Below, one piece after another: positions 16,171 through 33,857 of a stretch of DNA of 64,000 nucleotides. Both the position numbers and the translations under genes were made by a program. This DNA is from Syntrophaceae bacterium UBA2280 (GTDB taxonomy: Bacteria; Desulfobacterota; Syntrophia; Syntrophales; Smithellaceae). Position 1 is the first letter of the stretch. Every line of letters begins with the position of its first letter. The notes under the pieces were generated by a model. That model was not told the origin of the DNA. It did no database searches and saw nothing but the letters and a program-made list of their open reading frames with translations. The DNA lies in the NCBI GenBank assembly GCA_002347685.1, contig DDWS01000013.1, positions 146,472 through 210,471 on the forward strand, read 5' to 3'.

Positions 16171-16186
16171 TGGCACCAATATTGCA
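16171..16186 (+). promoter_or_regulatory. Sigma-54 (-24/-12) promoter of the sugar/glycosyltransferase operon
   Basis: TGGCAC-caata-TTGCA is an exact match to the TGGCAC-N5-TTGCA consensus. It lies 57 nt upstream of the rfbF ATG. Confidence 0.7.
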
Positions 16187-16242
16187 AAATGTCGGATTGT
16201 CGGATTTTACCCATAAGAAACCACAGGGGGTATGGATTCATC

Positions 16243-17022: not shown

Positions 17023-17036
17023 ATCGCGGATAACCT

Positions 17037-18128: not shown

Positions 18129-18661
18129 AATTTATCGAAACAAAACTTCAAGGCGCGTTCATCATTCGGCCGGATCTCATTGAAGACGAGCGAGGTTTCT
18201 TTGCCCGCACTTTCTGCCGACGTGAATTTGAAGAACATGGCTTAAATACCAATCTGGTTCAGTGCAACATTTCCTTCAACAAACAAAAAGGAACCCTGCG
18301 CGGCATGCATTATCAGGTTCCGCCGCATGCCGAGGCCAAGCTGGTTCGCTGCACGGCGGGAGCCATTTACGACGTCATCATCGATCTACGTGCCGCTTCA
18401 TCAACATTCAAGCAATGGTTTGCAGTGGAGCTGACAGCCGAAAATCATCAGTTGCTCTACGTTCCGGAAGGCTTTGCGCACGGATACCAAACGCTACGTC
18501 CGGATACGGAAATCCTTTATCAAGTATCCGAATTCTATCATCCGCAAAGTGAAGAAGGTGTCCGTTGGAATGATCCGGCTTTTGGAATAGTATGGCCGCT
18601 ACCTGCTACTGCCATGTCCGGCAAAGATGCATCCCATCCTGATTGGGGGGCAGACAAATGA
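18125..18661 (+). CDS. Sugar-nucleotide 3,5-epimerase, RmlC-like cupin (probable CDP-4-keto-6-deoxyhexose epimerase)
   Basis: MKFIETKLQGAFII..DERGFF...GTLRGMHYQ..P..EAKLVRC is an RmlC-family pattern. There is an ATGA overlap with the rfbG stop. Confidence 0.8.
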   Translation: MKFIETKLQGAFIIRPDLIEDERGFFARTFCRREFEEHGLNTNLVQCNISFNKQKGTLRGMHYQVPPHAEAKLVRCTAGAIYDVIIDLRAASSTFKQWFAVELTAENHQLLYVPEGFAHGYQTLRPDTEILYQVSEFYHPQSEEGVRWNDPAFGIVWPLPATAMSGKDASHPDWGADK

Positions 18662-19797
18662 AAGTCAGACTTTTTCAACCTTCCGTGGGACAAGAGGAGC
18701 TAAATGCCATCCAGGAAGCTTTTAATGATGCCTGGATTGGCCTTGGGCCGAAAGTAACGGAATTTGAAAATGCATGGCGCAATTTTATCGGCTGTAGACA
18801 TGCCGTGGGCATGAATTCGGCTACCGCGGCCTTACATCTGGCCTTGGCCGTCTATCGCTTCCCTAGGGGCAAGAAAGTCCTTATCCCCGCGGTAACATTT
18901 GTCGCCACCGCAACCGCCGCCTTGTATTGCGGTTTGCAACCGGTGTTTGTGGACGTTCGCGAAGACACCCTGGGCATGGATTTGGATGATCTCGAGCGTA
19001 AAATTGATCCGGATTGCGTGGCGGTAATGCCTGTGCATCTCTGCGGGCATCCCGTCGAAATGGACAGGCTGCTTGCTATCGCTCATAAAAACAGTCTCAA
19101 AGTAATTGAAGACTGTGCGCATACTGCGGGCGGTATATACAAAGGAAAAACTTTGGGTACCTGGGGAAATATCGGCTGCTTTTCATTTGAAGAAAAAAAG
19201 TGCATGACCACAGGCGACGGGGGAATGTTTTGCACGGATGACGAGGAATTGGTGGCTCCCGTTCGCGCCATGCGCTGGGTCGGTATCGATAAAGACACAT
19301 GGAAACGAAACGTCGGCTACACCTGTGAAGGCATCGAAGACCGCCACTGGTATTATGAGATTTCCTTGCTGGGATACAAGTACAACATGAATGACCTGGC
19401 AGCCTCCATTGGTCTGGTCCAGCTGCGAAAACTGCCAGAGATGAACGCGAGAAGAACCGCAATCATCGCTCGCTACCTGGATGGAATTGAGCACCTTGAA
19501 CATATCAGGCCACTTATCCCCTATGATTTATCCGGCGGAAATGTTTACCACATATTTGGAGTGCGGACTGACGCCAATAACCGCGACAATCTGATGCGCT
19601 ATTTAAAACAGCATGAAATTTCCACAGGCCTACACTACACGCCGCTGACACTCCATCCTCTTTTCCGCGCTCACAAAGAGGCAGTACCAAACGCACTATC
19701 GGTTTATCATCAAATTATGACTCTTCCGCTTCATGCGGCTTTGACCGACCAAGAAGTCGATTATGTCATCGACGCAATTTGTAGATGGAGCAAATGA
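18658..19797 (+). CDS. DegT/DnrJ/EryC1/StrS family sugar aminotransferase
   Basis: The family pattern is present (AVGMNSATAALHLAL, FSFEEKKCMTTGDGGM). There is an ATGA overlap with the upstream stop. Confidence 0.9.
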   Translation: MKVRLFQPSVGQEELNAIQEAFNDAWIGLGPKVTEFENAWRNFIGCRHAVGMNSATAALHLALAVYRFPRGKKVLIPAVTFVATATAALYCGLQPVFVDVREDTLGMDLDDLERKIDPDCVAVMPVHLCGHPVEMDRLLAIAHKNSLKVIEDCAHTAGGIYKGKTLGTWGNIGCFSFEEKKCMTTGDGGMFCTDDEELVAPVRAMRWVGIDKDTWKRNVGYTCEGIEDRHWYYEISLLGYKYNMNDLAASIGLVQLRKLPEMNARRTAIIARYLDGIEHLEHIRPLIPYDLSGGNVYHIFGVRTDANNRDNLMRYLKQHEISTGLHYTPLTLHPLFRAHKEAVPNALSVYHQIMTLPLHAALTDQEVDYVIDAICRWSK

Positions 19798-19836
19798 CAG
19801 CTGTCTTAAAAGATCCGAAAAAATGAGAAAAATATC

Positions 19837-20484
19837 ATGAAACAAAAACCGTCCATAAACCCAATTTCATCGATCCTGAAAAATCATTACGAAAAGAGTT
19901 TCGAAAAATTCGGCCCAAGTTCTGCTGGCGTTGATTGGGGACAGGACAAAACCAGAATGCTTATAAGATATAATAATATGTTGGATCTTGTGGAAAAACC
20001 GCAAGCACGCAAAAAGCAGTCTCTTCTGGATGTGGGTTGCGGTTTCGGCGGTCTGGCAGCTTATGCGCGCCAAAAAGACATCGCTTTAAATTATACCGGG
20101 ATTGACGTTGCAACAAACATGATCCGGTGGGCTAAAAAAAATATTAAGCAGTCAAAATTTATCGAAGACGATTTTCTCGCGCACGATTTTTCCGGAGCAA
20201 CTTACGATTATATCATCTGTAATGGTATACTGACTCAAAAGCTGGATTGCAGTCTGCGCGAAATGGATGTGTTTGCCAAAGCCTTGATTCATAAAATGTA
20301 TAGCTTGTGTAAAAAGGGCATCGCTTTCAATATCATGACGACCTATGTTAATTTTTTTGCTCCCAATCTTTATTACAAGCATCCGGCCGAATTACTTTCT
20401 TATTGCCTGTCCGAATTGAGCACGAAGGTAAAAATCGATCACGCGTACGGGCTTTATGAATTCACCGTATATGTGTACAGATGA
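19837..20484 (+). CDS. Class I SAM-dependent methyltransferase
   Basis: 215 aa, with motif I LLDVGCGFGGLAAYA. Confidence 0.7.
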   Translation: MKQKPSINPISSILKNHYEKSFEKFGPSSAGVDWGQDKTRMLIRYNNMLDLVEKPQARKKQSLLDVGCGFGGLAAYARQKDIALNYTGIDVATNMIRWAKKNIKQSKFIEDDFLAHDFSGATYDYIICNGILTQKLDCSLREMDVFAKALIHKMYSLCKKGIAFNIMTTYVNFFAPNLYYKHPAELLSYCLSELSTKVKIDHAYGLYEFTVYVYR

Positions 20485-20492
20485 GGAATGAC

Positions 20493-21143
20493 ATGGCAGA
20501 CATCATTATTTACGGAACCGGCCTTATTGCCGAAGTTGCGCATTTCTATTTCACACACGATACCGGACGGCACATCGCATGCTTTACAAATGCCGGCTCA
20601 TTTATTAAAGAATCCACCCTTCTCAATCTGCCTGTGGTGCCTTTTGAAAATATTGAGGCGCTTTTCCCTCCCGAGCACTACGACATGTTTATCGCAATCG
20701 GTTATACCAAAACGAATCAAATTCGTCAGCAGAGATACGCGGAGGCAAAAGCAAAGGGCTATCGGCTTGTAACCTATATAAGCTCACGGGCGGCATATTA
20801 CGCAACGCCGGTAGGCGACAATTGTCTCATCCTGGAAAATAACGTGATCCAGCCATACGTGACCATCGGCAACAATGTCACCTTATGGTCGGGCAATCAC
20901 ATTGGACATCATTCAGTCATTGAAGACCATTGTTTTATCAGCTCTCATGTCGTCGTCTCGGGATCCTGTTATATTGAAGAAAACTGTTTTCTGGGTGTCA
21001 ACAGCACATTAAGGGACAATGTAAGAATCGGAAAACTGTCCGTCATAGGTTCCGGAGCGACCGTTATGAAAAATTGCGGTGAACGGTCCCTGGTTCAGCC
21101 GGCAAAATCAAGGCATGAAATCATAGAAAAAGACATAATCTGA
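20493..21143 (+). CDS. NeuD/PglB/VioB-type sugar N-acetyltransferase (left-handed beta-helix)
   Basis: The N-terminus is IIIYGTGLIAEVA and the C-terminus carries hexapeptide repeats (IGNNVTLWSGNHIGHHSVIEDHCFISSHVVVSG). The start may be 20481 or 20493. Confidence 0.8.
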   Translation: MADIIIYGTGLIAEVAHFYFTHDTGRHIACFTNAGSFIKESTLLNLPVVPFENIEALFPPEHYDMFIAIGYTKTNQIRQQRYAEAKAKGYRLVTYISSRAAYYATPVGDNCLILENNVIQPYVTIGNNVTLWSGNHIGHHSVIEDHCFISSHVVVSGSCYIEENCFLGVNSTLRDNVRIGKLSVIGSGATVMKNCGERSLVQPAKSRHEIIEKDII

Positions 21144-21150
21144 AGGAAAG

Positions 21151-22110
21151 ATGCAAAGTCGGGATCAGCTGATGAATATGAAGTGGAAAAAAAAGGGGCA
21201 AATCTTTGTTCCGCCAGGTAACGGATTTTTCAAGACTCACGTAACCCGTTCAATACCTTATCGTATCGATCCTTCAACATTACGCATTTATTTTTCATCG
21301 CGCAGCAGCGAAGACATCCCATACCCTACCTTCATAGACGTTGACCCCGCATGTCCAGATAGGATATTACATATCAACGCAACTCCAATGATGGACTTGG
21401 GCAGAACCGGAACTTTTGACGACTCGGGTATCACGCCAACATGTATTCTGAAGCATAAAAATCAAGTAATGATGTATTATGTCGGATGGAAAAGGCGTCG
21501 CTACGGTGTTACCATTGAAGCATCCATCGGGCTTGCAATTTTAACCGACCACGGCACCAAGTTAAAAAGATGTTTTGAAGGCCCTATTATAGGTCAGGAT
21601 AAAAATCATCCCATCATGACGGCGGCACCTTTCGTTTTGTTTGACAATCGCAGATACAGAATGTGGTATTGTTCCGCTACAGAATGGAGGCAATGCAGCG
21701 GATCACCCGAACCCATTTATACCGTATGCTACGCTGAATCGGAAAACGGAATAGATTGGAAACCGCTAAGAAAACCTATTATACAAAACAGATTTGATGG
21801 CGAAGTTGTTTCTGCGCCATGGGTAATCAAGGCAGGCAACATTTATCACATGTGGTATTCAACGCGAGGTTCCGCGACAAACGAAGATAAGAAGTTCGTC
21901 ATTGGTTACGCAAAATCCCCTGATGGCGTCAAGTGGCGGCGCCTTGACAGCCAAGCGGGAATTGAGCGGTCGGAAGACGGATGGGATTCCGAAATGATTT
22001 GTTATCCTTCATTCTTTACCCATAAGGATATTACCTATATGTTTTACTCCGGCAACAATGTCGGGAAAGGCGGGCTCGGCTACGCCGAGACGAAAAATTT
22101 TCTATTGTGA
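21151..22110 (+). CDS. Uncharacterised beta-propeller-like protein (GH32/43/130-like fold suspected) of polysaccharide clusters
   Basis: 319 aa. Repeated W/Y-rich blade-like segments are present (MMYYVGW, YRMWYCS, YHMWYST, YMFYSG). The family assignment is tentative. Confidence 0.4.
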   Translation: MQSRDQLMNMKWKKKGQIFVPPGNGFFKTHVTRSIPYRIDPSTLRIYFSSRSSEDIPYPTFIDVDPACPDRILHINATPMMDLGRTGTFDDSGITPTCILKHKNQVMMYYVGWKRRRYGVTIEASIGLAILTDHGTKLKRCFEGPIIGQDKNHPIMTAAPFVLFDNRRYRMWYCSATEWRQCSGSPEPIYTVCYAESENGIDWKPLRKPIIQNRFDGEVVSAPWVIKAGNIYHMWYSTRGSATNEDKKFVIGYAKSPDGVKWRRLDSQAGIERSEDGWDSEMICYPSFFTHKDITYMFYSGNNVGKGGLGYAETKNFLL

Positions 22111-22121
22111 GGAAGTAACCG

Positions 22122-22847
22122 ATGTCCGTCACCATCGTTATATTGCAACCGATGTTTATTCCCTGGTTGGGTTTATTTGAGCAAATCCGGTTATCCGATA
22201 TTTACGTGCATTACGACGATGTGCAATTGCCACAGGGCCGGAGTTTTACAACGCGCGTGCAGATTAAAACATCCGCCGGTATCACATGGCTGACTGCGCC
22301 GGTCGATCGAACGCATTCGGGTGCCATGATCAACGAAACTTGCCTGGTTCAGGATAACAATTGGCGTATCAAACATCTTAAAAGCTTAAAGCAGTGGTAC
22401 GCACGCGCGCCTTTTGTTGACACGATGATGGAAATAGCAAATCAGATATACGCTTTCGATTCAAACAATCTTGCTTTATTTAATCTTCACGCCATTGAAT
22501 TAGTCACTGCATGGCTTGGCTTAAAGACTCGTTTTTCGAGCTCATCGGAGTTGGGAATAGCAGGATCAAGCACCAGGCGCCTGGTGGATATTTGTCAGTA
22601 TTACAAAGCGGATACATATGTGACCGGATTGGGTGCGCTTCATTATCTCGATTATGAACAGTTTGAGAGTTACGGCATATCGGTCAGATACATGGACTAT
22701 GAAAAAAGGACCTATCCCCAGTTACATGGAACCTTCACGCCTTTTGTCTCCATTCTGGATACCATAGCCAATTGCGGCAGGAAGACCGAAGAATTAATCC
22801 GTTCCGGGGCAATTTACTGGAAAGACTTCCTGTTGCGCGGGCAATAG
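22122..22847 (+). CDS. WbqC-family protein
   Basis: 241 aa. The N-terminus ILQPMFIPWLGLFEQIRLSDIYVHYDDVQ is characteristic of WbqC-like proteins. Confidence 0.75.
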   Translation: MSVTIVILQPMFIPWLGLFEQIRLSDIYVHYDDVQLPQGRSFTTRVQIKTSAGITWLTAPVDRTHSGAMINETCLVQDNNWRIKHLKSLKQWYARAPFVDTMMEIANQIYAFDSNNLALFNLHAIELVTAWLGLKTRFSSSSELGIAGSSTRRLVDICQYYKADTYVTGLGALHYLDYEQFESYGISVRYMDYEKRTYPQLHGTFTPFVSILDTIANCGRKTEELIRSGAIYWKDFLLRGQ

Positions 22848-22908
22848 ACAATTTTAGGGAGTGCCAGATAAAGAATCTCTATTTCCATCATAGCGCTCAG
22901 GGGGAACA

Positions 22909-24150
22909 ATGAATCAGGAAAACAAGCAGCAATTAACGCTGCTGAACACAATCAGCGATGCCGTTGAATACATTAAAATCAAACCCGAAGCCGAACAACA
23001 CCTGTATCAACGCCTTAAAGAAGCTTTTCTGGCTATTGGCTTACCCACCCGAAATCGCATGATTGAACTCCTGGACACGCTTCCGACGAACAGGTCGCAG
23101 CTGGATGAATTTGCAAAGCTCTTTGATAAGTGGCTGGACTTAAACATCATTGCCTTATCCAATCGCATCAGGACATCGGATTCCTATAAAAAAGGGCTTT
23201 ATGGCGCCGATAGAAAATTTAATGAATTAATCAGCCTGATTAACGGAAGTCATGCACAGACGCTTATCACCCACGCGATGGACTGTCTGCAAAAAATCAG
23301 GGACGAAAACCCGCCTCTCTATGAATTTCTCACCGTCGGATATCGCGGCTGGTATTTCGAAAACAACTGGCTAGATGGAATCGGCGGTAAAAATAATTCT
23401 CTCATAAACAACAGAATAACGACTTTAAAGAACAACATATCCAAATTCGAATGGTTCTACGACCACTTGGAAGATAACCTGTCAAAGCGATCTCTCAACG
23501 CCCTTATAAACAATTGGTTGACCTTTTCGATGAATGAGGCTCTCGATGTTTCGCTGTATGCATCGCACAATGTCGTGGCCAACACGGACATTTTTCCTCT
23601 TTATGAAAATGAGGTCTTTGTTGATTGCGGCGCTTACGTCGGAGACACCGTGGCCGATTTCGTCAACGAGTTCAACAGAGGCTATCGAAATATCTACACC
23701 TACGAGATTTCAGCGCCAACCGTCGACATTATGAAAAAGCATCTCCAAAACCTCCGGAATGTCATTTACAATGTGAAAGGCGTAGCGGATCAGAAAGGGG
23801 AATTAAGTCTTGCAGGCGTTGATGGACCTTTTCTCGGCAACCGGCTGGTAGAAGGCAAAGGAATTAAAAAGGTCCCTATCGTTAAGCTTGACGATGATAT
23901 TCAGGAACCGATTACGTTTCTCAAAATTGACGTCGAAGGATTGGATAAACAGGCTATCCTCGGCGCAAAAGAACAGATCGCCCAGCATCATCCCAAAATG
24001 CATATCGATACTTATCATAAACTGGCCGACGTGGTTGATGTGCCACTATTGGTTCACAGCATTGATCCAACCTACAGGTTTTATCTGAGGCTGACGAACT
24101 CCACCGAAAATAAAATGATGTTCGCAATTTCTTGTATTTATCCAATATGA
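22909..24150 (+). CDS. FkbM-family methyltransferase with an N-terminal extension of unknown function
   Basis: The C-terminal half carries FVDCGAYVGDT ... FLKIDVEGLD (FkbM motifs). The N-terminal roughly 200 aa are unassigned. Confidence 0.7.
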   Translation: MNQENKQQLTLLNTISDAVEYIKIKPEAEQHLYQRLKEAFLAIGLPTRNRMIELLDTLPTNRSQLDEFAKLFDKWLDLNIIALSNRIRTSDSYKKGLYGADRKFNELISLINGSHAQTLITHAMDCLQKIRDENPPLYEFLTVGYRGWYFENNWLDGIGGKNNSLINNRITTLKNNISKFEWFYDHLEDNLSKRSLNALINNWLTFSMNEALDVSLYASHNVVANTDIFPLYENEVFVDCGAYVGDTVADFVNEFNRGYRNIYTYEISAPTVDIMKKHLQNLRNVIYNVKGVADQKGELSLAGVDGPFLGNRLVEGKGIKKVPIVKLDDDIQEPITFLKIDVEGLDKQAILGAKEQIAQHHPKMHIDTYHKLADVVDVPLLVHSIDPTYRFYLRLTNSTENKMMFAISCIYPI

Positions 24151-24162
24151 GGGGGTTTTTCT

Positions 24163-27100
24163 ATGCGGTTTTCTATTTGTTTGGTCGAACCCGATGGGTA
24201 TCGGTTCTCACACTTTCTTTATGATACATGCAAATACCTTTGCTATACGATTGAAGCAAACGGCTTTGATTGTTGCATGGTCAAGAATAAATTCTTCCAG
24301 GATCGAATCAATCTTATCTTAGGCGCACACAATCTCAAAGATCCCAACGTCGTCAACATAATCCGGCGGGCGGGAAAATACATCATCATTCAATCCGAAG
24401 TTCTCACAGAAAACGGGATAGCAGGCTGGAACAACCAAGCATCTTTTACCGACGTTTATCTGCCACTAATGCTGCATGCATACGCTGTATGGGATGGCAT
24501 GGAATCCAATCAGACATACATGCAGAGGGCCGGAATCAGCGCGGATATAATTCCTCATTTCGGCTACCTTTCTGCATTGAAGGAGGTGATACCCAAAAAA
24601 AGCAAAGATATAGACTTTTTATATTATGGTTCCCTGACGCCACACAGAAAAAAGATGATAGACGAACTTAAAAAACGCGGGGGCAATGTTGTCTGTATCT
24701 TTGATGAATCTGCAATTTTTCGAAATGATTATATTGCGAGAGCGCGCATTAACTTGGCACCAAGACAGACACCAGAAAACGACCACATGACATCAAGAAT
24801 ATTATATCTGCTGAATAATCAATCAATTGTAGTTGTTGAACGTTGTCGCGACCAAGCATGGGTTGAACATTGTTTTTTATCTGCAGACACCGATAAATGG
24901 GCCGAATTGTGTATGCAGACCTTGCAGCGCTCCGATCTGGATTCACTCGCCGACCAATGCTTTGAGAATTATAAAAAACTCGATATGACAGGGCTGTTCC
25001 GGCCGCTGCTGAAAAAGCTTTGTGATGAACAAGAAATCAGCAAACCAAATATATCAATGACCTCCCAAGAGAAAAAAAGCATTATAGAAAATGATGCCCA
25101 TTCAGATGATCCTGCACCACCGTTCTTAAAAGAAATAAACATACCCGGCCTGACTTCCATCATCATCCTCACGCACAATCGGCTCGAACAAGCCAAAAAA
25201 TGCGTAAAAAGCATTCGCAGGCACACGCCAGAAGCGCATGAGATTATTTTTGTCGATAACGGATCGACCGACGGCACCGTTAAATGGCTGCAAAGTCAGA
25301 TTCGGGAAAATAAGAACTATCAATTGATTGAGAATAGAGAAAACGTTGGCGTGGCAAAGGGCCGCAATCAGGGCATGAATCTATCACAAGGGGAATTTCT
25401 ACTGCTTCTGGATAATGATGTCATCGTCAGTGAAGGCTGGCTATCCGGCATGCAGGAATGCCTGAAGCACGCGCCGGATGCCGGCATTGTCGGACCGATG
25501 ACCAACAGCAAATCTGGTCTTCAGCAGATAGCGGATGAATCTTATCGATCGGTCGATTATCTCGATAAGTACGTGGCAAAGTTTAAAGAGCAATACCGTC
25601 ATCGCCGGATTTCCAGCCGAAACATCACGGGATTCTGCCTGTTGTTCAAGCGCGCCCTGGTGGAGAAGATCGGCCTGCTCGATGAACGCTTTGACACCGG
25701 TCGTTTTGAAGATGAGGATTTCTGCTGGCGCTCGGCGCTGGAGGATTATCGGAACTACATCGCGGGGGATGTTTTTGTCCACCATAACGGAAGTAAAACA
25801 TTGCCGGGTGATCGGAAAATCTTAGAGACAAAGTGGACGCTCAGCATGGCCAGCCCCGAGGGAAAGAAGCTGGCGGTGCTGAGGGCAACAGAGTTGGCCA
25901 ATACCTATTATGTAAAAGGGTATATGGATCAGGCCGTGGAAACACTGGTCAATTGTATAAAATATACGCCGGACGAGCCGCAAATTTATTATGAGCTGAC
26001 CCGTTTTTTCATTGAATCTAAAAAATTTCCCGAAGCAAGGGACGTTGTCGCCTCCATGCCGGAAACGGCGAAAAACCATTTGAGAGGGCTGGAATGCGCA
26101 AGTTATGCCAAAGAGGGCTTAGGGCTGGATGATGAAGCGGCGGCCTTTGCCGATCAGATGTTGTCTCAACACGAAAACAATTCCGCAGCACTGAATCTGA
26201 AAGGCGTTTTGGCATTCAAAGAAGGTAAAAAGGAAAAAGCGCAGGATTTCTTCCAAAAAGCGATCAGCGCCGATCCGGGTTACGCAGAAGCCTATACCAA
26301 CCTGGGTGTTTTGTACTGGGGAATGGAAAATACGGATGCAGCTTTTTCCCATCTGAAAAAAGGGTTTATGCTGTCACCTGCGATTCCTGATGCCAGTTCA
26401 CTTTATTATTCGGTCGTCTCGTCTTTAGGCCGTTTTTCTGAAGCCGAATCGGATTTCAAAGAAGCCTGTCGTCTAAATCCCAACCACAAAAATCTTGCTT
26501 TTCTCCTGATTGATATTCTCATTCAACAGGGCAAGTTTGATGCAGCAATCATCAAGATCGAAGATGCGCTTGCCTTGTTTGGACTCGACGATGGCACTCT
26601 GAAAGCGGCTCTGGCTGTTCGCGAAAAGATCGGCCCGATGGAAATCGAAAAACCGGGCCAAAAAGGATCCTTGTCCATTTGCATGATTGTAAAAAATGAG
26701 GAAAAGCATCTGGTCAGATGCTTAAAAAGCGTCCGGGATGTGGTTGATGAAATGATCATTGTTGATACGGGCTCGACGGATAAAACGGTTAATATCGCAA
26801 AAATATTTGGCGCAAAAATTTACGAATTCCCCTGGACGGGCGATTTTGCCGCAGCCCGTAATGAGTCGCTAAAATATGCGACCGGTGATTGGACGCTAAT
26901 CCTCGACGCCGACGAAGTCATCGCCGAACGTGATTTTGATGAATTGAAAACATCAATCCACAAGCGCTCACCATCAAAAGCCGCCTATTCGATTGCCACA
27001 AGGAATTATACCAACGATATCGGACTGCTCGGGTTTGCACCCAACGATGGAAAGCATTCGGAAGAAGCAGGTGCCGGATGGGTGCCGAGCGCAAAGGTCC

Positions 27101-27927
27101 GTCTGGCACCACGAGGAAAAGATATATTTTTTATCAATCCGGTCCATGAGCTACTGGAGCCATCATTAAAATCAACTAAAATCCCCATCTATCCCAGCAA
27201 GATTATCGTTCATCATTATGGAAAGTTAGACATTCATAAAGACGCTCAAAAGGGCGAAGATTACTATCTGTTAGGAAAAATCAAGTACGAAAGCGATCCG
27301 ACAAACTTGAAAGCTATTTTTGAACTGGCCAAGCAGTCCCATTTGCTCAATAAGTATGACGAGGCCACAGAGCTGTGGCTCAAGCTCCTGGCACTTATAG
27401 AAGCCGACCCTCAATCATCAGGTTTTCAGGAAATTGTCCGGAGTACTCACGGGGATCCCTTGCCGGAAATTTATATTCAGCTTGCCTCGGCCTACTTGCT
27501 GCAGGATCGTTTTGATGAGGCTTTGCAGACAGCAAGCAAAACGCTGGAGGCTAAAGTTAAGCTCAAAGAATATATCAATATTTACGCGTTGTGCGAAATC
27601 ATAGCCGGTTCGTTGGACAAAGCATCTTATGAACTCAAAGAAACCCTTAAAACAGCGCCCGACTACGCGCCCGCACATCTATTGATGGCCGTCATTTCCT
27701 GTTTGAAAGGGGAAAAAGAACAAACGCAGGAACTATTGGGACTATTGCGGCAAAAACAAATCCAGATAACGGGCCACTTAAACAAGCTAGCCAAGCAACT
27801 TTATACTCGCGCGAGGAAGGATGAGGCGTTACTGATTCTCAACGCAACGATTGAAAACAATATAAGCAATGCTGAAACAATCGCGCTGCTTGAGGAATAC
27901 CAGAAAGGGCAACGGAATACTGGTTGA
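24163..27927 (+). CDS. 1254-aa multidomain glycosyltransferase: N-terminal GT-B/CgeB-like domain, GT2 domain, TPR block, second GT2 domain, second TPR block
   Basis: GT2 #1 is TSIIILTHNRLEQAKKCVKSI...FVDNGSTDGT...LLLLDNDV. GT2 #2 is LSICMIVKNEEKHLVRCLKSV...IIVDTGSTDKT...LILDADE. TPR-like repeats lie between and after the two GT2 domains. Confidence 0.75.
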   Translation: MRFSICLVEPDGYRFSHFLYDTCKYLCYTIEANGFDCCMVKNKFFQDRINLILGAHNLKDPNVVNIIRRAGKYIIIQSEVLTENGIAGWNNQASFTDVYLPLMLHAYAVWDGMESNQTYMQRAGISADIIPHFGYLSALKEVIPKKSKDIDFLYYGSLTPHRKKMIDELKKRGGNVVCIFDESAIFRNDYIARARINLAPRQTPENDHMTSRILYLLNNQSIVVVERCRDQAWVEHCFLSADTDKWAELCMQTLQRSDLDSLADQCFENYKKLDMTGLFRPLLKKLCDEQEISKPNISMTSQEKKSIIENDAHSDDPAPPFLKEINIPGLTSIIILTHNRLEQAKKCVKSIRRHTPEAHEIIFVDNGSTDGTVKWLQSQIRENKNYQLIENRENVGVAKGRNQGMNLSQGEFLLLLDNDVIVSEGWLSGMQECLKHAPDAGIVGPMTNSKSGLQQIADESYRSVDYLDKYVAKFKEQYRHRRISSRNITGFCLLFKRALVEKIGLLDERFDTGRFEDEDFCWRSALEDYRNYIAGDVFVHHNGSKTLPGDRKILETKWTLSMASPEGKKLAVLRATELANTYYVKGYMDQAVETLVNCIKYTPDEPQIYYELTRFFIESKKFPEARDVVASMPETAKNHLRGLECASYAKEGLGLDDEAAAFADQMLSQHENNSAALNLKGVLAFKEGKKEKAQDFFQKAISADPGYAEAYTNLGVLYWGMENTDAAFSHLKKGFMLSPAIPDASSLYYSVVSSLGRFSEAESDFKEACRLNPNHKNLAFLLIDILIQQGKFDAAIIKIEDALALFGLDDGTLKAALAVREKIGPMEIEKPGQKGSLSICMIVKNEEKHLVRCLKSVRDVVDEMIIVDTGSTDKTVNIAKIFGAKIYEFPWTGDFAAARNESLKYATGDWTLILDADEVIAERDFDELKTSIHKRSPSKAAYSIATRNYTNDIGLLGFAPNDGKHSEEAGAGWVPSAKVRLAPRGKDIFFINPVHELLEPSLKSTKIPIYPSKIIVHHYGKLDIHKDAQKGEDYYLLGKIKYESDPTNLKAIFELAKQSHLLNKYDEATELWLKLLALIEADPQSSGFQEIVRSTHGDPLPEIYIQLASAYLLQDRFDEALQTASKTLEAKVKLKEYINIYALCEIIAGSLDKASYELKETLKTAPDYAPAHLLMAVISCLKGEKEQTQELLGLLRQKQIQITGHLNKLAKQLYTRARKDEALLILNATIENNISNAETIALLEEYQKGQRNTG

Positions 27928-28015
27928 TCGTGGATGGTGAAGGGACAAAGACGGTTATTCCGAACACATGTGAGGAATCACAGGGCAACGACTTTTATTA
28001 GAAACAAGATGGAAT

Positions 28016-28399
28016 TTAATCCGCCGGACTGCCACGGAGCCCGGCGGCCAGATTCAGGTTGATATCCATAATGATCTTGAGCTTTTCCGGCTGAGGGTCG
28101 GCCATGATCTGAATGATGCGGTTGTCGATAAATACACTGAGCGTCAGGATGCTCTGGCGGATCTCGATCGGAAGCGGATTATCGTCTCTGACCAGTTCCG
28201 ACTGGAGGATGCTCCAGACGACCTGGTTGGTTCTAAGCGCTTCGGCCAAGAGGTCATCACGATCAGGCGTGTCCCAGTTTTTCACGCAATCGGACAAAAG
28301 CAGCGCGCAACGTGTCAGCGCGGCGGCCTCGATGTCTCTCCCCGACATATTATCGGTTTTCTGTGCTGTTCGATAGGCTTCGAGTTCTCTCGGATACAC
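28016..28399 (-). CDS. flaF: Flagellar biosynthesis regulator FlaF, paralog 1
   Basis: 127 aa, with a GTG start. The FlaF pattern is present (AYRTAQ...REIEAAALTRCALLL...NQVVWSILQSEL...NPLPIEIRQSILTLSVF). Confidence 0.75.
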   Translation of the reverse strand: MYPRELEAYRTAQKTDNMSGRDIEAAALTRCALLLSDCVKNWDTPDRDDLLAEALRTNQVVWSILQSELVRDDNPLPIEIRQSILTLSVFIDNRIIQIMADPQPEKLKIIMDINLNLAAGLRGSPAD

Positions 28400-28434
28400 C
28401 GCCCACCCCCTGACCCTTTTTTATGACTATTACT

Positions 28435-28461
28435 TTATCGGTATTTACAAGAGAAACATTA
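28435..28461 (-). promoter_or_regulatory. Sigma-28 (FliA)-type promoter for flaF paralog 1
   Basis: The minus strand reads TAATGTTT-N11-ACCGATAA, against the consensus TAAAGTTT-N11-GCCGATAA. It lies about 36 nt upstream of the GTG start. Confidence 0.55.
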
Positions 28462-28602
28462 AGCCCATGCAACGTAATAGATACTTTCAAGGCTGATCAT
28501 AATCGTCGATAAAACCTGACCAATCTTGATGATACTGGCATTTATCGGATGAATAATGTAGGATAGCAGACACAAAGGCAAACGATATTGCAGAGGAAAA
28601 CT

Positions 28603-28980
28603 GTGAAAAACGATATCTGTCATGAACTGCGGAACAAAAAACCCCTTATGCCGGTTCTGCCGGATGAGCAAAAAGTGAACGAGCAGGATTCTCTTTCGTT
28701 ATCTTTGCTACGACCATCTTTGTTCTGGGATGTGAATCCGGATAGGCTGGACGCAGACCGGCATGCAGCCTTCATTATTGTCCGTGTTATGGAACGCGGC
28801 ACACGGGAAGATGTCAACACCGTCTGGCATTATTACGGTGAGGAGACTATAAAAATACATCTTTTAGCCGCGAGATCATTGCATAAAAAGACCATTTCCT
28901 ATTTTGCAAATAAGTTCAGTGTCAGCCGCGCACAATTTAAAAGCTTTCACCACGGAGAGCAGGTCCAGCCATGGCCTTAA
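28603..28980 (+). CDS. Small partner protein of the AbiEii-like nucleotidyltransferase (putative antitoxin-like; LFWD motif family)
   Basis: It contains PSLFWDVNPDRLD...HAAFIIVRVMERG, a pattern I recognise from proteins encoded upstream of AbiEii-like genes. The start is ambiguous (28588 TTG, 28603 GTG after AGAGGA, or 28648 ATG). The 3' end overlaps the next gene by 10 nt. Confidence 0.5.
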   Translation: MKNDICHELRNKKPLMPVLPDEQKVNEQDSLSLSLLRPSLFWDVNPDRLDADRHAAFIIVRVMERGTREDVNTVWHYYGEETIKIHLLAARSLHKKTISYFANKFSVSRAQFKSFHHGEQVQPWP

Positions 28981-29588
28981 CAGAAATTATTAAAATAGCC
29001 GTTACTGACGATGTTCTAACGCTTCTTCATAGAATTATGCAGGATGCGGTTTTTGATGATTTTTATCTGGTTGGCGGTACAGCGCTGGCTTTGCAAATTG
29101 GACACCGCGTATCGATAGATATCGACCTTTTTACGGGTGAAATATTCGATACCGACCAAATCAGCGATTATATCTGTCATGTTTACGAAGGTAAAGAAAT
29201 AGAGGTGGAACGAAACACCGTTCGAGCAATCATCGATAGCATCAAGCTCGATTTAATGACTCACAAGTATCCATTGCTTGAACCACTCGAAAAAAAAGAG
29301 AATATCCGCATGGCAAATCTAAAAGACATCGCCGCTATGAAAATTAACGCCATTGCCAGTCGGGGAAGCAAAAAGGATTTCTGGGATTTTGCCGCCCTGC
29401 TTGATTTCTTTCAGGCACAGGAAATGCTTTCGTTTTTTCAATCCAAGTATTCCAATGCAAACGTATGGCACGCCGAAAAATCTTTGTCGTATTTCGACGA
29501 CGCCGACCTGGAGCCTGACCCAAATGACATAACAGGGAAAAACTGGGAGGAAATCAAGCAACGCATCAACAGTTCACTAAAGGTTTGA
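28971..29588 (+). CDS. Nucleotidyltransferase AbiEii/AbiGii toxin-family protein
   Basis: 205 aa. The motif FYLVGGTALALQIGHRVSIDIDLF is typical of the AbiEii-like NTase fold. Confidence 0.65.
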   Translation: MALTEIIKIAVTDDVLTLLHRIMQDAVFDDFYLVGGTALALQIGHRVSIDIDLFTGEIFDTDQISDYICHVYEGKEIEVERNTVRAIIDSIKLDLMTHKYPLLEPLEKKENIRMANLKDIAAMKINAIASRGSKKDFWDFAALLDFFQAQEMLSFFQSKYSNANVWHAEKSLSYFDDADLEPDPNDITGKNWEEIKQRINSSLKV

Positions 29589-29594
29589 AATTTT

Positions 29595-29631
29595 TAGACC
29601 TACAGCCTAACAGCCCACAGCCTAATAGCCT
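29595..29631. repeat. Heptanucleotide tandem-repeat tract
   Basis: Sequence is tagaccta cagccta acagccc acagccta atagcct. It fills the gap between the AbiEii stop (29588) and the flaF2 stop (29638). Confidence 0.7.
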
Positions 29632-29637
29632 TTAATA

Positions 29638-30021
29638 TCATTCCGCCGCGCTGCCTCTGAGCCCCGCGGCGAGATTCAGGTTAATGTCGATGACGATCTT
29701 GAGTTTTTCCGGTTCGGGATTCGCCATAACATCAATAATTCGTTTATCAACAAAAAGGCTGAGTGTCAGGATGTTGTTGCGAATCTCGACGGGCAGGGGA
29801 TTGTCATCTTTCACCAGCTCCGATTGTAGAATACTCCAGACCACCTGGTTGGTTCTGAGCGCCTCGGCTAAATTTTCATCACGGTCGGGGGCATTCCAGT
29901 GTTTACGGCAATCCTCCAGCAAGAGTGCGCAACGGGTCAGCGCAGCGGCTTCAATATCGCGGCCGGACATATTATTGGAATTCTGTGCGGTTCTATAGGC
30001 TTCGAGTTGCAGTGCGTACAC
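29638..30021 (-). CDS. flaF: Flagellar biosynthesis regulator FlaF, paralog 2
   Basis: It aligns along its full length with paralog 1. I place the start at the GTG at 30021, which lies 9 nt after GGGAGG and matches the paralog 1 N-terminus (YxxxLEAYRTAQ). The ORF track extends it to 30048. Confidence 0.75.
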   Translation of the reverse strand: MYALQLEAYRTAQNSNNMSGRDIEAAALTRCALLLEDCRKHWNAPDRDENLAEALRTNQVVWSILQSELVKDDNPLPVEIRNNILTLSLFVDKRIIDVMANPEPEKLKIVIDINLNLAAGLRGSAAE

Positions 30022-30400
30022 GGTTGATGACCTCCCGTTCGTATTCAATGAGTTTTTTCGTTTGTTTCAGCGCCTGATAATGCCGGTCGTTGAGAATATC
30101 GTTGCTGATCTCCTGCAACATTGGCTTGGTGGAAGGCGCCGCCTGGGCCACATCCTTGACCAGTTCCCAGTAAATCTTGTGATGCTCCGGAAGATTCTTG
30201 CCATCGATATACATGAGCTGAATGGCAAAATAAATTTTCTTGCACGGAGTGTCCGCCGACTGAAGCGTCAGAATATCTTTTTCCCGCAGGATCGGCACAT
30301 CGTTTTCAAGCACAAAGGTACTTTTGGCATCGCCGTTGGCGATGACCGCGCCGCCGAGAATGAATTTTTCGTGCGGCTTGAGCGTTATTTTTAGGGCCAT
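29993..30400 (-). CDS. flbT: Flagellar biosynthesis repressor FlbT
   Basis: 135 aa. MALKITLKPHEKFILGGAVIANGD...VLENDVPILREKDI matches the FlbT N-terminal pattern (LKLSLKPGEK..NGAV..N.....L....VLREKDI). Confidence 0.75.
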   Translation of the reverse strand: MALKITLKPHEKFILGGAVIANGDAKSTFVLENDVPILREKDILTLQSADTPCKKIYFAIQLMYIDGKNLPEHHKIYWELVKDVAQAAPSTKPMLQEISNDILNDRHYQALKQTKKLIEYEREVINRVRTATRSL

Positions 30401-30407
30401 AGCAAAC

Positions 30408-30890
30408 CTATGCCTCCAGTTTCAGGATCGAGCCGGGTTGAATATTATCTTTCGACACGGCCAGGCTTCGGGACAAAGTATCCCGAAGAGTCTTCAGGTT
30501 GTCAACAGCATTGGCGATTTGCTGATCGTTCGCGTCATCTTTCAATTTCTCGCCGGAAACGGCTTGTTTGATTTCCGGGCTAAGCGATGAGCGCTCGACC
30601 TCCACCTGAATGTTCCTGACCTCGCTGATGAGATCCATTCGCTGGTAGGTTGCTATGGGGAAAAAAGGCGGATCCTTAACTTCATTGAGGTTCCACTGTT
30701 TCTGCAGAGCATTCACGCGTTCCGCGATCCCCAGCAACCGGGCACTGCTGGTTTCCACCCCCGCTCTCGGCGCGGGTGCGCTTCGGTCGGAAGACAAAAC
30801 CTGCCTGTTGTCGTCGCTGGAGCTGTTCGAACCGCCAGGGCGAATCGCATTCTGCAGTCCCTGATACGGGTTAATTTGATTAATCATCAT
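30408..30890 (-). CDS. Hypothetical protein of the flagellin locus
   Basis: 160 aa. The N-terminus is Ser/Pro-rich and looks disordered. I recognise no family. It sits between fliC and flbT on the same strand. Confidence 0.5.
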   Translation of the reverse strand: MMINQINPYQGLQNAIRPGGSNSSSDDNRQVLSSDRSAPAPRAGVETSSARLLGIAERVNALQKQWNLNEVKDPPFFPIATYQRMDLISEVRNIQVEVERSSLSPEIKQAVSGEKLKDDANDQQIANAVDNLKTLRDTLSRSLAVSKDNIQPGSILKLEA

Positions 30891-30904
30891 TTTTCTGTAC
30901 CGAA

Positions 30905-30940
30905 AGAACCGGGTGGAGGGGAATTCTTCCCCTCCACCCG
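30905..30940 (-). terminator. Hairpin terminator/attenuator after the flagellin gene
   Basis: Perfect 11-bp GC-rich stem gggtggagggg / cccctccaccc. The downstream minus-strand sequence GGTTCTTTCGG is only moderately T-rich. Confidence 0.5.
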
Positions 30941-30959
30941 ATGCCTGGTTATGTTTCTA

Positions 30960-32276
30960 CTACTGGAACAATCTCAGAACCGACTGGGCTGCCTGTGCCG
31001 ACATGCTCAGAGCGGTCGTGCTGAGAGACTGACGGGTCTGCAGCATCAGCATGTTCGCGCCTTCTTCGTTCGCGTCAGCCAGGGTCAGCTTGTCCGCGCC
31101 TTGGGTCAGCGTGTTAATCATGTTCGTCGAGAAATCCTGACGAACGGTGATGATACTCAGGTTGCCGGATAGCTTGGACGATTCAGAACGAAGCGTGATT
31201 AAAGCAGTATCCAGAGCAGCCAGATCGGTATCAATGTTGCCGCCGTCTGTCCAGGTTGCCGCATTAATGCCCAGATCGGCTGCAGCGGCGCTAAAGCCCA
31301 CCACTTCCAGATCGATCCCTTCAAATTTCACAGTCAGCGTATCTGCGCTCAGGAGATTTTTCCCCTTGTAGCCTGAGTCTTCCGCCAACGCAGTCAACTG
31401 AGTCAGCAGGGTGTTGTACTGTCCCTGCAAGGAGACGAGTTCCGGGGAGGGCACTTCAGTATATGTCACACTGACTGCGCCTACGGCAGAAACTGTCGCT
31501 GTTTCAACACCTGTGATAGCGCCTAGTTCACCTTGCAATGCTGTAAAGGCGGCCGTAGCAGAAGCGCCGGTTGCCGAATACGCAGTTGTACCAATTGAGA
31601 AGGTAGCGGTTTCTACGTGCGCGACAGGCCCTGCAGCCCCAGTCGCATCTCCAGCAGTGACAGCGGTGCCTGTAATACTGCCTGCAGCAACATCAGCTGC
31701 AGCGTTCGAAATAGTGATAACTTCACCTGTAGCGGAGGCTGTATAACCTGTCAAAGCATCTATCTTGGCAGCCAGATCTGTAGCAGATCCGTCAAAACTG
31801 GTGGCACCGCCTGCATCCGTATTGACCGCAAACGTCGTGGTGCCGATGACGATGGTTTGACCCGTGGTAGTCAGACCTCCAGTGGTCAATGTTAATGTTG
31901 CGTTCGCATAGGAGGTTACTGTAGCAACGGCAGTTCCGGTCACTTCATCAGGTGTCGTGGCGGGTGCCGCGCTCAGAGCGGACTGCGCAAGACCTTTGGC
32001 CTGTTCAATCATTGCACTGATGGCCGTGATACCTTTGTCGGCGGCGGTGATCGTCTGAACGGCCTGTCCCATGGCATCCTTCAAACCATCAATGATGGAC
32101 GCACGCGAGGTCAGTGACTGAGCCGCGAAGAATGATACGGGATTGTCAATAGCGGTGTTAACTTTTTTGCCTGTCGCCAGGCGGCTTTGGGTTCTGTCTA
32201 AAAGATCAACGGTGTTCTGAAGTGCTAAAAGGTTGGATCTCATACCGGAAGTTAATGATACGTCGTTAATAGCCAT
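30960..32276 (-). CDS. fliC: Flagellin (Caulobacter/alphaproteobacterial-type termini, Thr/Ala/Gly-rich central domain)
   Basis: 438 aa. The N-terminus reads LTSGMRSNLLALQNT...RLATGKKVNTAIDNPVSFF. The C-terminus reads ANEEGANMLMLQTRQSLSTTALSMSAQAAQSVLRLFQ. Confidence 0.9.
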   Translation of the reverse strand: MAINDVSLTSGMRSNLLALQNTVDLLDRTQSRLATGKKVNTAIDNPVSFFAAQSLTSRASIIDGLKDAMGQAVQTITAADKGITAISAMIEQAKGLAQSALSAAPATTPDEVTGTAVATVTSYANATLTLTTGGLTTTGQTIVIGTTTFAVNTDAGGATSFDGSATDLAAKIDALTGYTASATGEVITISNAAADVAAGSITGTAVTAGDATGAAGPVAHVETATFSIGTTAYSATGASATAAFTALQGELGAITGVETATVSAVGAVSVTYTEVPSPELVSLQGQYNTLLTQLTALAEDSGYKGKNLLSADTLTVKFEGIDLEVVGFSAAAADLGINAATWTDGGNIDTDLAALDTALITLRSESSKLSGNLSIITVRQDFSTNMINTLTQGADKLTLADANEEGANMLMLQTRQSLSTTALSMSAQAAQSVLRLFQ

Positions 32277-32427
32277 GATTTGTTCTCCTTTTCTAGGTTG
32301 TTATCTGACCATTCTGGCCAGGGGGTTAAATTTTGCCGATGGCTGTCGGCTATTCTGCTTTTTCTATTTGACTGACTCTTTTCTGCCCACCTCCTTCTCG
32401 ACATATATGTCGTTCGCTTTGATTCTG

Positions 32428-32454
32428 TTATCGGAAATGTCATACAAAACTTTA
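32428..32454 (-). promoter_or_regulatory. Sigma-28 (FliA) promoter of the flagellin gene
   Basis: The minus strand reads TAAAGTTT-tgtatgacatt-TCCGATAA, matching 15 of 16 positions of TAAAGTTT-N11-GCCGATAA. It implies a 5' UTR of roughly 140 nt. Confidence 0.75.
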
Positions 32455-32585
32455 GGGGTTTTTGGAAAAATCTAAAAATAATCAAAAAAATCGAGGTGAT
32501 GGGCAAGAGGCTACAGCCCTTCGAATCTTTCATCTTCCCCATCCACTATTCACCAGCCACCATCCACCATCCACCGCCCCTCCCC

Positions 32586-32613
32586 TCAAGTTTCCCTGCC
32601 CCCCTGCCGATAG
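32586..32613 (+). promoter_or_regulatory. Sigma-28-like promoter for the TPR gene (divergent from fliC)
   Basis: TCAAGTTT-N12-GCCGATAG. The spacer is 1 nt longer than consensus. It lies about 33 nt upstream of the ATG at 32646. Confidence 0.45.
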
Positions 32614-32645
32614 GGTTATCAAATGAAGGAGAATCGGGAACTATC

Positions 32646-33857
32646 ATGAAGGAATACGGCATATCGGCGGAAGCCATCCATTACCTGTTTTCATCTACCA
32701 GAGCCAACACCCAGGCCAATCTGGATGCTTTGTCCTCGAATGTGCTGGGGCAGGGAATTGATTATTTTCAGTCCGGAAAATACGATCTGGCGATCAGCGC
32801 CTTTAAACGCGCCGCCGCGCTTTCTCCTTTCTCCGAAAATTCCATAAAATCCTATCAGTTTATCGGGGAGGCATACCTCAAACAGGAAAAAACAGAAGAA
32901 GCGATTAAAAATTATAAAGAAGCAACCCGTATTTACCCGAATCGCGCCGAGTTTCATCGGGCCCTGGGCGATATCTACATCCAGCAGGAAAGACCGGAAG
33001 AAGCTCTTAAGGCATTTGAAGCCGCCGTGAAGAATGATCCGGATGACGCAGAGGCGCGTTATTCGCTGGGACAGTCTTATATTGAGGCGGGCGAACCGGG
33101 AAAAGCCCGCGAACAGTTCGCCAAAGTCGTCCAGTTGACGCCGATCAGTGCAGCCGGTTTCTATGGCCTGGGTCAGACGGCCCGCGCGTCAGGGGATCTG
33201 GATGAAGCGGTCTCGCAACTGCAAAATGCCATCCGGGTCAACCGGAATTTTGAAATTGCCTATGTGGAGCTGGGGCGCACCTACGCCGATAAGGGCGATT
33301 TTCACAGGGCCGAAGATCAATTGTCCATGCTCAAGGCCAAAGGTTCCGACAAAACCACTGAACTGGAAGGCTACATCGGGCAGGCCAGGCAGCCGCGTAT
33401 GCTTTCGGCTTTTTCAAATAACGGGTTTGGCACCTATTTGGGGCCCAAAACCAATGTGGCTTTTCTGGATCCACCCAATTCAGCGCTGGATCGGGCAAAC
33501 GGCAAAAAACTCTTTTCGATGAGTTTTTCTTTTTCCAAGGATATGGATTTGGCGTCCGTCATCAATCCCTTCAACTGGAAAATCTCGCGGGCGACGATTC
33601 AGGACAATGGCGGCGTATATAATGGTGGATTGACTCCGCCGTCTACGGAAGCCCTGATTCTCCCGAAGCCCGCGTATGTCACGTACAACAGCCAAACCAA
33701 TACGGCCACCGTCAATTTCTGGGTTTCTCAAAACGCAGACGTCAACGCGACGATTGACCCCAGGCATATCGTGTTTAAATTCTCAGGTGTTGACGCCTAC
33801 GGCAAAGCTATGGACCCATCCGGCGACGAATACAGCGGCTTTTCCCGCATCGCATAG
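32646..33857 (+). CDS. TPR-repeat protein with a C-terminal beta-rich (Ig-like?) domain
   Basis: TPR motifs occur throughout residues about 40-260 (AIKNYKEATRIYPNRAEFHRALGDIY and others). I place the start at the ATG at 32646, after AAGGAG. The upstream 50 aa in the ORF track are low-complexity. Confidence 0.7.
   Translation: MKEYGISAEAIHYLFSSTRANTQANLDALSSNVLGQGIDYFQSGKYDLAISAFKRAAALSPFSENSIKSYQFIGEAYLKQEKTEEAIKNYKEATRIYPNRAEFHRALGDIYIQQERPEEALKAFEAAVKNDPDDAEARYSLGQSYIEAGEPGKAREQFAKVVQLTPISAAGFYGLGQTARASGDLDEAVSQLQNAIRVNRNFEIAYVELGRTYADKGDFHRAEDQLSMLKAKGSDKTTELEGYIGQARQPRMLSAFSNNGFGTYLGPKTNVAFLDPPNSALDRANGKKLFSMSFSFSKDMDLASVINPFNWKISRATIQDNGGVYNGGLTPPSTEALILPKPAYVTYNSQTNTATVNFWVSQNADVNATIDPRHIVFKFSGVDAYGKAMDPSGDEYSGFSRIA

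Follow-up and report, generated by a model that had tools for sequence, protein, structure and literature searches.

We found that the flagellin locus in a 64,000-nt stretch (64 kb; hereafter the window) of Syntrophaceae bacterium UBA2280, contig DDWS01000013.1, carries two paralogous copies of flaF next to the flagellin gene fliC and the regulatory gene flbT. One copy, flaF2, overlaps flbT; the other, flaF1, stands 1.6 kb off in the same locus, behind a sigma-28 (FliA)-type promoter of its own. Comparison with related loci shows that the duplication is old, confined to a Smithella subclade and maintained under purifying selection, and that it is a trait of the lineage and no peculiarity of the window genome. 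Our best explanation, in which as a whole we have about even confidence, is that this is a filament-stage regulatory locus of a Smithella-like bacterium, where flaF1 supplies FlaF independently of the transcript that runs from fliC through flbT to flaF2.

Read along the minus strand (32454 to 28016), the locus consists, in this order, of a sigma-28 promoter, the flagellin leader, fliC, a hairpin, orfX, flbT, flaF2, an intervening plus-strand gene pair, a second sigma-28 promoter and flaF1 (Table 1). A reading made earlier from the sequence alone (the sequence-only reading) had assigned 29993-30400 to FlbT and named two FlaF paralogues, and profile searches bear out these identities. FlbT scores far above the PF07378 cut-off of 27 bits and covers profile positions 1-125 of 125. 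Its scores lie under the NCBIfam equivalog cut-offs (139.7 versus 153 bits for NF009432, 110.7 versus 125 bits for NF001995), and it is a family member narrowly outside the alphaproteobacterial equivalog thresholds. Both FlaF products exceed the cut-offs of PF07309 (23.6 bits) and of the NCBIfam FlaF equivalog NF009435 (91 bits) and cover profile positions 3-113 of 113. Standard annotation pipelines would label flbT and both flaF genes correctly. The flagellin gives a weak Pfam Flagellin_N match, and its matches to the NCBIfam subfamilies PRK12688, PRK14708 and PRK12687 all fall under their cut-offs. Sequence searches of the PDB with FlaF, FlbT and the orfX product returned no related solved structure.

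The start of flaF2, which the open reading frame (ORF) lister had put at TTG 30048, is GTG 30021. A GGGAGG Shine-Dalgarno sequence precedes this codon, and the resulting N-terminus (VYA.QLEAYR) and length of 127 aa are common to flaF1 and all orthologues. With the flbT stop at 29993, the two genes overlap by exactly 29 nt, the value and the coupling to flbT that the sequence-only reading had given, and the overlap is kept in relatives out to Syntrophorhabdus and Thermodesulfovibrionales.

An old flaF duplication in a Smithella subclade

FlaF1 and FlaF2 share 77% amino-acid identity, and their genes are identical at 74.5% of nucleotides (286/384). The earlier impression that most nucleotide positions are conserved is thus right, yet synonymous sites are saturated: identity falls to 49% at third codon positions, and in the flanks it is about 30%, the random level. 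Between the copies the nonsynonymous divergence (dN) is 0.14 and the synonymous divergence (dS) 1.76, for a dN/dS of 0.08. Each copy compared with its orthologues gives a dN/dS of 0.06-0.12 (0.07-0.12 for flaF1), and the range over the comparisons made is 0.06-0.17, with dS above 1.

Two flaF copies occur on one contig in at least seven other genomes (L001, L002, L005, L010, L017, L020 and L024, labels of this kind denoting related loci fetched for comparison with the window). L020 is a complete chromosome, and L021 and L023 show a distal-type flaF at the contig start. Complete Smithellaceae chromosomes include one with two flaF genes (OY821638.1) and one with a single copy (OY820932.1). In four of the seven, L001, L010, L020 and L024, the copies stand in tandem, 170-470 nt apart, and the tandem arrangement is likely the ancestral state. 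Close relatives with a single flaF (L006, L008, L009, L011 and others) have a convergent glycosyltransferase gene directly after it. In neighbour-joining trees the distal copies form one group and the flbT-coupled copies another, with weak support, and the distal group falls inside the radiation of Smithella FlaF. Collectively, the divergence, the dN/dS values, the two-copy distribution and the trees establish the age, the limits and the maintenance of the duplication, and they answer the question of recent duplication or acquisition that the sequence-only reading had raised: flaF1 goes back to a tandem duplication that took place long ago within the Smithella lineage.

The proteins themselves have changed little in ways that separate the copies. 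The sole strictly paralogue-diagnostic residue is position 93 (K versus N), and comparison of the paralogue-specific residues gave no evidence of divergent binding surfaces; judging by their sequences, FlaF1 and FlaF2 probably do the same thing. An identical FlaF1 protein is found on nine contigs from at least three different samples. DNA contigs of this Smithella come from SRR12666050, SRR12918152 and ERZ27315057.

Next to the coding sequence, the promoter of flaF1 is a conserved feature. In the 64-kb window, a sigma-28 scan with the strict pattern TAAWGTTT-N11-RCCGATAA (up to two mismatches) found two matches where 0.07 would be expected; one precedes fliC and the other flaF1. The flaF1 site matches 14 of the 16 positions of the TAAAGTTT-N11-GCCGATAA consensus, with a spacer of 11 nt, and 11 related loci have the fliC element in the same position. 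Of the ten genomes with a distal flaF, nine have a sigma-28-like site upstream of it, the background rate of such matches being about 0.006 per 150 nt. In the window and in L017, L020, L023, L021 and L024 the sites form one orthologous block (CCGGGC-TWAATGTTTCTC..GCAAAT-RCCGATAAA), which lies 30-40 nt ahead of the start codon and is the most conserved upstream segment of the distal flaF; the Shine-Dalgarno sequence of flaF1 is conserved along with it. L001, L002 and L005 have a differently placed site (TYAAGTTT-N11-TCCGATAW), 82-86 nt upstream. The promoter that the sequence-only reading had ascribed to flaF1 is supported by this conservation.

With a third, slightly different match before a divergent gene for a tetratricopeptide repeat (TPR) protein, these sites are the only ones found, so that all good-quality sigma-28-like sites of the window fall within a 4.6-kb locus. 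A sigma-54 scan of the window (TGGCAC-N5-TTGCW, three mismatches) gave fewer matches than shuffled sequence and none before orfX, flbT or flaF, and fliA is absent from the 64 kb. No strong promoter other than the sigma-28 promoter of fliC lies upstream of flbT-flaF2, and both flaF copies are therefore probably sigma-28 dependent. They would differ in transcript context and not obviously in transcriptional input: flaF2 lies behind the fliC leader, the strong post-fliC hairpin and flbT, and flaF1 is a predicted short-leader monocistron. The different transcriptional inputs claimed by the sequence-only reading thus hold for the context of the copies and probably not for the sigma factor on which they would depend.

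Table 1. Features of the flagellin locus (window coordinates unless a related locus is named)
Feature	Position	Strand	Evidence or remark
fliC, flagellin, 438 aa	30960..32276	-	Pfam Flagellin_N and Flagellin_C; NCBIfam flagellin subfamilies
flbT, 135 aa	29993..30400	-	PF07378, 151.1 bits
flaF2, 127 aa, GTG start, copy in ancestral position	29638..30021	-	PF07309, 103.1 bits; NF009435, 117 bits
flaF1, 127 aa, GTG start, distal paralogue	28016..28399	-	PF07309, 95.4 bits; NF009435, 110.4 bits
orfX (orf160), 160 aa, YPPFFP motif, between fliC and flbT	30408..30890	-	
Sigma-28 (FliA)-type promoter of flagellin operon, TAAAGTTT-N11-TCCGATAA	32428..32454	-	151 nt before flagellin ATG
Sigma-28-type promoter of flaF1, TAATGTTT-N11-ACCGATAA	28435..28461	-	35 nt before start codon
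Third sigma-28 match, TCAAGTTT-N12-GCCGATAG	32586-32613	+	precedes divergent TPR gene
Flagellin 5′ leader, about 145 nt	32277..32427	-	alignment and RNAalifold
Conserved AAGGAGG box in leader	32383-32397	-	
Hairpin 1 in leader	32335-32350	-	
Conserved hairpin 2 in leader, CUGGCCAGAAUGGUCAG	32305-32321	-	
Invariant box AACCUAGAAAAGGAG with Shine-Dalgarno sequence	32285-32299	-	
58-nt leader element (hairpin, loop and box)	32274-32330	-	
14-bp perfect hairpin after fliC, GAAGAAUUC-like centre	30910..30940	-	
DUF6922 protein, presumed antitoxin partner	28588..28980	+	PF21956, 69 bits; true start may be downstream of 28588
AbiEii-family nucleotidyltransferase toxin, 205 aa	28971..29588	+	PF08843, 62.4 bits (cut-off 22.5); PADLOC AbiEii models match
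Toxin-antitoxin insertion hotspot	window 28400-29640; L002 10766-12290; L005 1027-2275; L017 13471-14456, 15057-15467		

The flagellin leader and other elements of the locus

The sigma-28 site upstream of fliC gives a predicted leader close to the 140 nt or so that the sequence-only reading had estimated, and leader length is conserved across the related loci at 136-153 nt counted from the -10 element. Within it, a 58-nt element combines a covarying 7-bp hairpin, an AGAAU-type loop and the box AACCUAGAAAAGGAG. In the hairpin 93.5% of cells are paired and five of the seven pairs show changes on both sides, a result that no shuffle equalled. We searched a covariance model of this element (R1) over 690 kb of related loci at E ≤ 0.001 and obtained 76 matches in Desulfobacterota and Nitrospirota loci, every one ending at a flagellin ATG and none elsewhere; among them are the match at the second flagellin gene of L017 and a remnant in L030 that has decayed. 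The window holds one match, and none before flaF1. The motif went undetected in two alphaproteobacterial loci that carry FlbT and FlaF (L025, L026), and an Rfam search of 27500-33000, leader element included, matched no family. The covarying hairpin and Shine-Dalgarno box are specific to flagellin leaders in flbT-carrying loci, and the element appears to be a good candidate site for control of flagellin translation. Its candidate binder is FlbT, or a CsrA-type protein acting at two GGA boxes.

Directly 3′ of the flagellin stop stands a perfect, G+C-rich hairpin, which folds with a 16-bp stem at -35.5 kcal/mol (z = -5.45). Twelve related loci have a structurally equivalent hairpin whose stem sequences differ. 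It has no clear U tract and may therefore be an attenuator or a stabiliser of the mRNA 3′ end rather than a terminator; its likely role is that of an attenuator, a 3′-end stabiliser or a processing site.

Between fliC and flbT, orfX has homologues in the same position in Syntrophales and Nitrospirota loci and gave no match in Pfam, NCBIfam or PDB. Its family shares an invariant PPFFP-type motif and the C-terminus PG..L.LKV, and this short form is related (hhalign, 90% probability) to a longer form with a KNYPPYP motif in Nitrospirota and Geobacter-like loci. As one distant long-form member (L088) weakly matches flagellin-N models, we considered a kinship with flagellin. When both orfX alignments were compared, profile against profile, with the N-terminus of flagellin, the similarity was not significant, and the kinship is rejected for now.

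The plus-strand pair between the flaF copies, which the sequence-only reading had called foreign, is indeed so: it is a toxin-antitoxin module with a G+C content of 43.6% versus 52% for the window. Its DUF6922 and AbiEii genes overlap by 10 nt. The module resembles AbiE-type (type IV) systems in its AbiEii nucleotidyltransferase toxin domain and in the small upstream gene that overlaps the toxin gene, and differs from them in that the upstream partner is DUF6922 (PF21956) and not a canonical AbiEi, and in that the toxin is short. The same pair recurs at the same site in L017, so that the module is inserted between the flaF copies in the window genome and in at least one related species.

Elsewhere the spacer holds other modules, a PIN/MazE-like pair in L005 and a ParE toxin with a MazE-like gene in L002, which makes it a toxin-antitoxin insertion hotspot; the hotspot takes in the stretch just downstream of the distal flaF, where L002 carries AbiEi/AbiEii and L017 a PIN gene. 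The insertions invariably lie upstream of the flaF1 promoter, which is preserved. Because other genomes have different families at the site, there is no sign of a functional tie between toxin-antitoxin genes and flaF. A further locus, L106, had seemed to be a variant lacking the pair; it is identical to the window, and the upstream "gene" called there is not a genuine ORF. A short tandem direct repeat (CCTACAGCCTAACAG / CCCACAGCCTAATAG) occupies positions 29599-29628, within the 49 nt that separate the convergent AbiEii and flaF2 stops. It may be the scar of an insertion or else a small repeat element, and a similar motif (TTAGGCTG) follows the distal flaF in L001.

FlaF supply and rival explanations

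For Caulobacter, two papers (PMC7591256, PMC9812332) describe FlaF as a flagellin secretion chaperone and FlbT as a repressor of flagellin translation that needs a flagellin co-repressor, FljJ; FlaF-aided secretion there relieves the repression by FlbT. The view of FlbT and FlaF as post-transcriptional flagellin regulators, with which the sequence-only reading began, is to be corrected accordingly. That FlaF binds flagellin and promotes its secretion is known for Caulobacter only (PMC7591256).

By analogy with Caulobacter, FlbT, probably with unsecreted flagellin, would act on the conserved fliC leader, and FlaF would chaperone flagellin for export and so relieve FlbT control. flaF2, translationally coupled to flbT, would be made in fixed proportion to FlbT; since its transcript is expected to carry the fliC leader and to have to pass the post-fliC hairpin, the supply of FlaF2 would follow the fate of that mRNA. 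flaF1 would be made directly upon sigma-28 activity, independently of the fliC-flbT-flaF2 transcript. By their sequences FlaF1 and FlaF2 could almost stand in for each other, so that the duplication would mainly add a separately expressed supply of the same chaperone, and the supply from flaF1 may raise the FlaF:FlbT ratio at the filament stage. The dosage or timing switch proposed by the sequence-only reading is plausible.

A more specific version appears to us tentative and rather doubtful. Under this hypothesis, FlbT in Desulfobacterota and Nitrospirota would act through the leader hairpin and Shine-Dalgarno box, and the Smithella circuit would be a two-arm switch. Its flaF2 arm would be self-limiting, being on the FlbT-controlled transcript, and its sigma-28-driven, FlbT-independent flaF1 arm would ensure that repression is overcome upon completion of the hook-basal body. 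orfX could be a further component of this circuit.

Several observations weigh against our best explanation. The bootstrap support of the paralogue clades is weak (41-70%) because the FlaF protein is short, and L010 has an intact distal flaF with no recognisable sigma-28 site upstream. Within orfX, a sigma-70-like match (30477-30505) might serve flbT-flaF2 as a separate promoter, although such matches occur at chance frequency. Since no terminator separates flaF2 from flaF1, a transcript that reads through, antisense to the toxin-antitoxin pair, might extend into flaF1 as well. The transcription starts, the read-through of the hairpin and the co-transcription of flbT-flaF2 with fliC are all predictions. 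Furthermore, FlbT of Brucella melitensis is reported as an activator in work cited in PMC9812332; the sign of FlbT/FlaF control therefore differs between Caulobacter and Brucella, and in Smithella it may take either direction.

How the second copy came about and why it was kept can be explained in other ways. A second flagellin gene suggests one of them: flaF1 could have arisen together with a fliC2 as its dedicated chaperone. L017 has an intact second flagellin (881 aa) with its own leader motif between flaF_a and flaF_b, and in L030 (5638-6240, a metagenome assembly) a decayed leader and a 7-codon truncated flagellin start are followed by a frameshifted distal flaF, which suggests joint loss. 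However, in the window, over its 64 kb, and in L020, L024, L010, L002 and L005 the distal flaF is intact and under selection, and no second flagellin lies near it, a single strictly diagnostic residue separates the paralogues, and one Caulobacter FlaF binds all six flagellins (PMC7591256); we hold such specialisation to be unlikely. About as improbable in our judgement is plain dosage or redundancy, by which the second copy only raises the amount of FlaF and its promoter is merely what a tandem copy needs, with no regulatory logic. The near-identity of the FlaF sequences at the functional level, the probable sigma-28 dependence of both copies and the L010 distal copy without a promoter of its own fit this, but both copies and the separate promoter have been retained in at least eight genomes at dS above 1, and the promoter has been kept despite different spacer insertions. 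Dosage shades into the explanation that we favour, the sole difference being whether independence from the fliC transcript matters.

The remaining two alternatives are contradicted by the comparisons. That flaF1 is foreign and came in with the toxin-antitoxin pair by horizontal transfer might be supposed from the low G+C content of the pair (43.6%), which directly adjoins it. Tandem flaF-flaF loci have no toxin-antitoxin module at all in L001, L010, L020 and L024, the spacers of L002 and L005 hold different families, flaF1 has a G+C content of 54.7% like its neighbours, and the distal copies cluster with Smithella FlaF in the tree; such an origin is very improbable. We give even less credence to flaF1 as a decaying redundant duplicate, a fate suggested by the frameshifted distal copy of L030. 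In the window genome its frame is intact at 127 aa and under purifying selection against orthologues (dN/dS 0.07-0.12), its promoter and Shine-Dalgarno sequence are conserved, and the same protein recurs across contigs of different samples.

Comparison, distribution and meaning

The locus shares with Caulobacter crescentus the families PF07378 and PF07309 encoded next to a flagellin gene and a long structured flagellin leader as a plausible target. It also has an adjoining TPR-containing glycosyltransferase and sugar island, which recall FlmG flagellin glycosylation (PMC7591256). The differences are several. The window host belongs to the Desulfobacterota and Caulobacter to the Alphaproteobacteria. 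The window flagellin and flaF1 carry sigma-28-type promoters, whereas Caulobacter flagellins are sigma-54 dependent. A conserved orfX between fliC and flbT and two flaF paralogues are extra, and no dedicated regulatory flagellin paralogue was seen in the 64-kb window. Among Alphaproteobacteria, where both genes are conserved, flaF is generally upstream of flbT (PMC9812332); here flbT comes first, with the 29-nt overlap. In Brucella melitensis the same families act on flagellin production, and with FlbT reported there as an activator in work that PMC9812332 cites, family membership does not fix the sign of regulation.

FliS and FliW-CsrA in Bacillus and Campylobacter are alike in that a flagellin-binding protein and a leader-binding translational regulator couple synthesis to secretion, and the two GGA-containing boxes of the window leader (AAGGAGG and the Shine-Dalgarno box) resemble CsrA targets. 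The protein families are unrelated, however, the AGAAU loop of the window hairpin is without GGA, and no csrA or fliW was found among the window ORFs scanned against Pfam.

The FlbT relatives that share 80-92% identity belong to metagenome-assembled genomes of Smithella and Smithellaceae, the nearest cultured relatives being Syntrophus and Syntrophorhabdus. We surveyed flagellin loci with the window flagellin as query and fetched 77 loci from the best 80 of 408 matches. In about 60 of the 77, flbT and flaF follow directly on fliC in the downstream direction, as a rule with an ORF in between. These loci belong to Syntrophales, Syntrophorhabdia, Thermodesulfovibrionia/Nitrospirota, Desulfobacterales and Geobacteraceae. 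The fliC-orfX-flbT-flaF cassette is, among the fetched loci, the usual arrangement in Syntrophales, Syntrophorhabdia and Nitrospirota. The sequence-only reading had called the system alphaproteobacterial-style, which is true of where it was studied and misses its host, a Smithella-like member of the Desulfobacterota in whose related loci the cassette is common. To our knowledge, FlbT/FlaF control of flagellin has been studied in Alphaproteobacteria only and not in Desulfobacterota. A literature search for FlbT in Deltaproteobacteria, Desulfovibrio, Syntrophus and Smithella found no FlbT paper among the 15 best-ranked of 3,630 results, and we found no published account of a flaF duplication with its own promoter, of the toxin-antitoxin hotspot or of the leader motif.

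The neighbouring genes add several observations. The TPR protein gene (32646-33857, plus strand), divergent from fliC and with its own sigma-28-like promoter, probably starts at an ATG near 32646 and not at GTG 32496; it looks like a late flagellar gene, and similar sites occur in L001, L007, L009, L011 and L017. On the other side, 16165-27927 (plus strand) holds a nucleotide-sugar biosynthesis operon (nucleotidyltransferase, dehydratase, epimerase, DegT aminotransferase, methyltransferases, acetyltransferase and WbqC), followed by a gene, convergent with flaF1, for a protein of 1254 aa that combines two GT2 domains with TPR repeats. This stretch is a probable flagellin glycosylation island, and most related loci have the large gene in this place. 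The sugar operon is headed by a perfect sigma-54 consensus, TGGCACCAATATTGCA (16171-16186, plus strand), the only zero-mismatch site among the matches listed.

Taken together, the locus shows a variant architecture, conserved within the lineage, of a regulatory module that was already known; it is no new kind of system but a real, if modest, variation. Its practical impact is modest, given the difficulty of culturing the organisms and an effect that is probably quantitative, and the toxin-antitoxin hotspot between the flaF copies is a small extra point on genome plasticity. In the fetched loci of syntrophic Desulfobacterota and Nitrospirota, the FlbT/FlaF module is the usual flagellin-locus arrangement, in which it goes together with sigma-28 promoters, a leader RNA structure that is conserved and one additional conserved gene. 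The stable two-copy flaF is a natural experiment in which the chaperone has been separated from the repressor transcript, and it could be used to probe whether the FlaF:FlbT ratio sets the flagellin switch.

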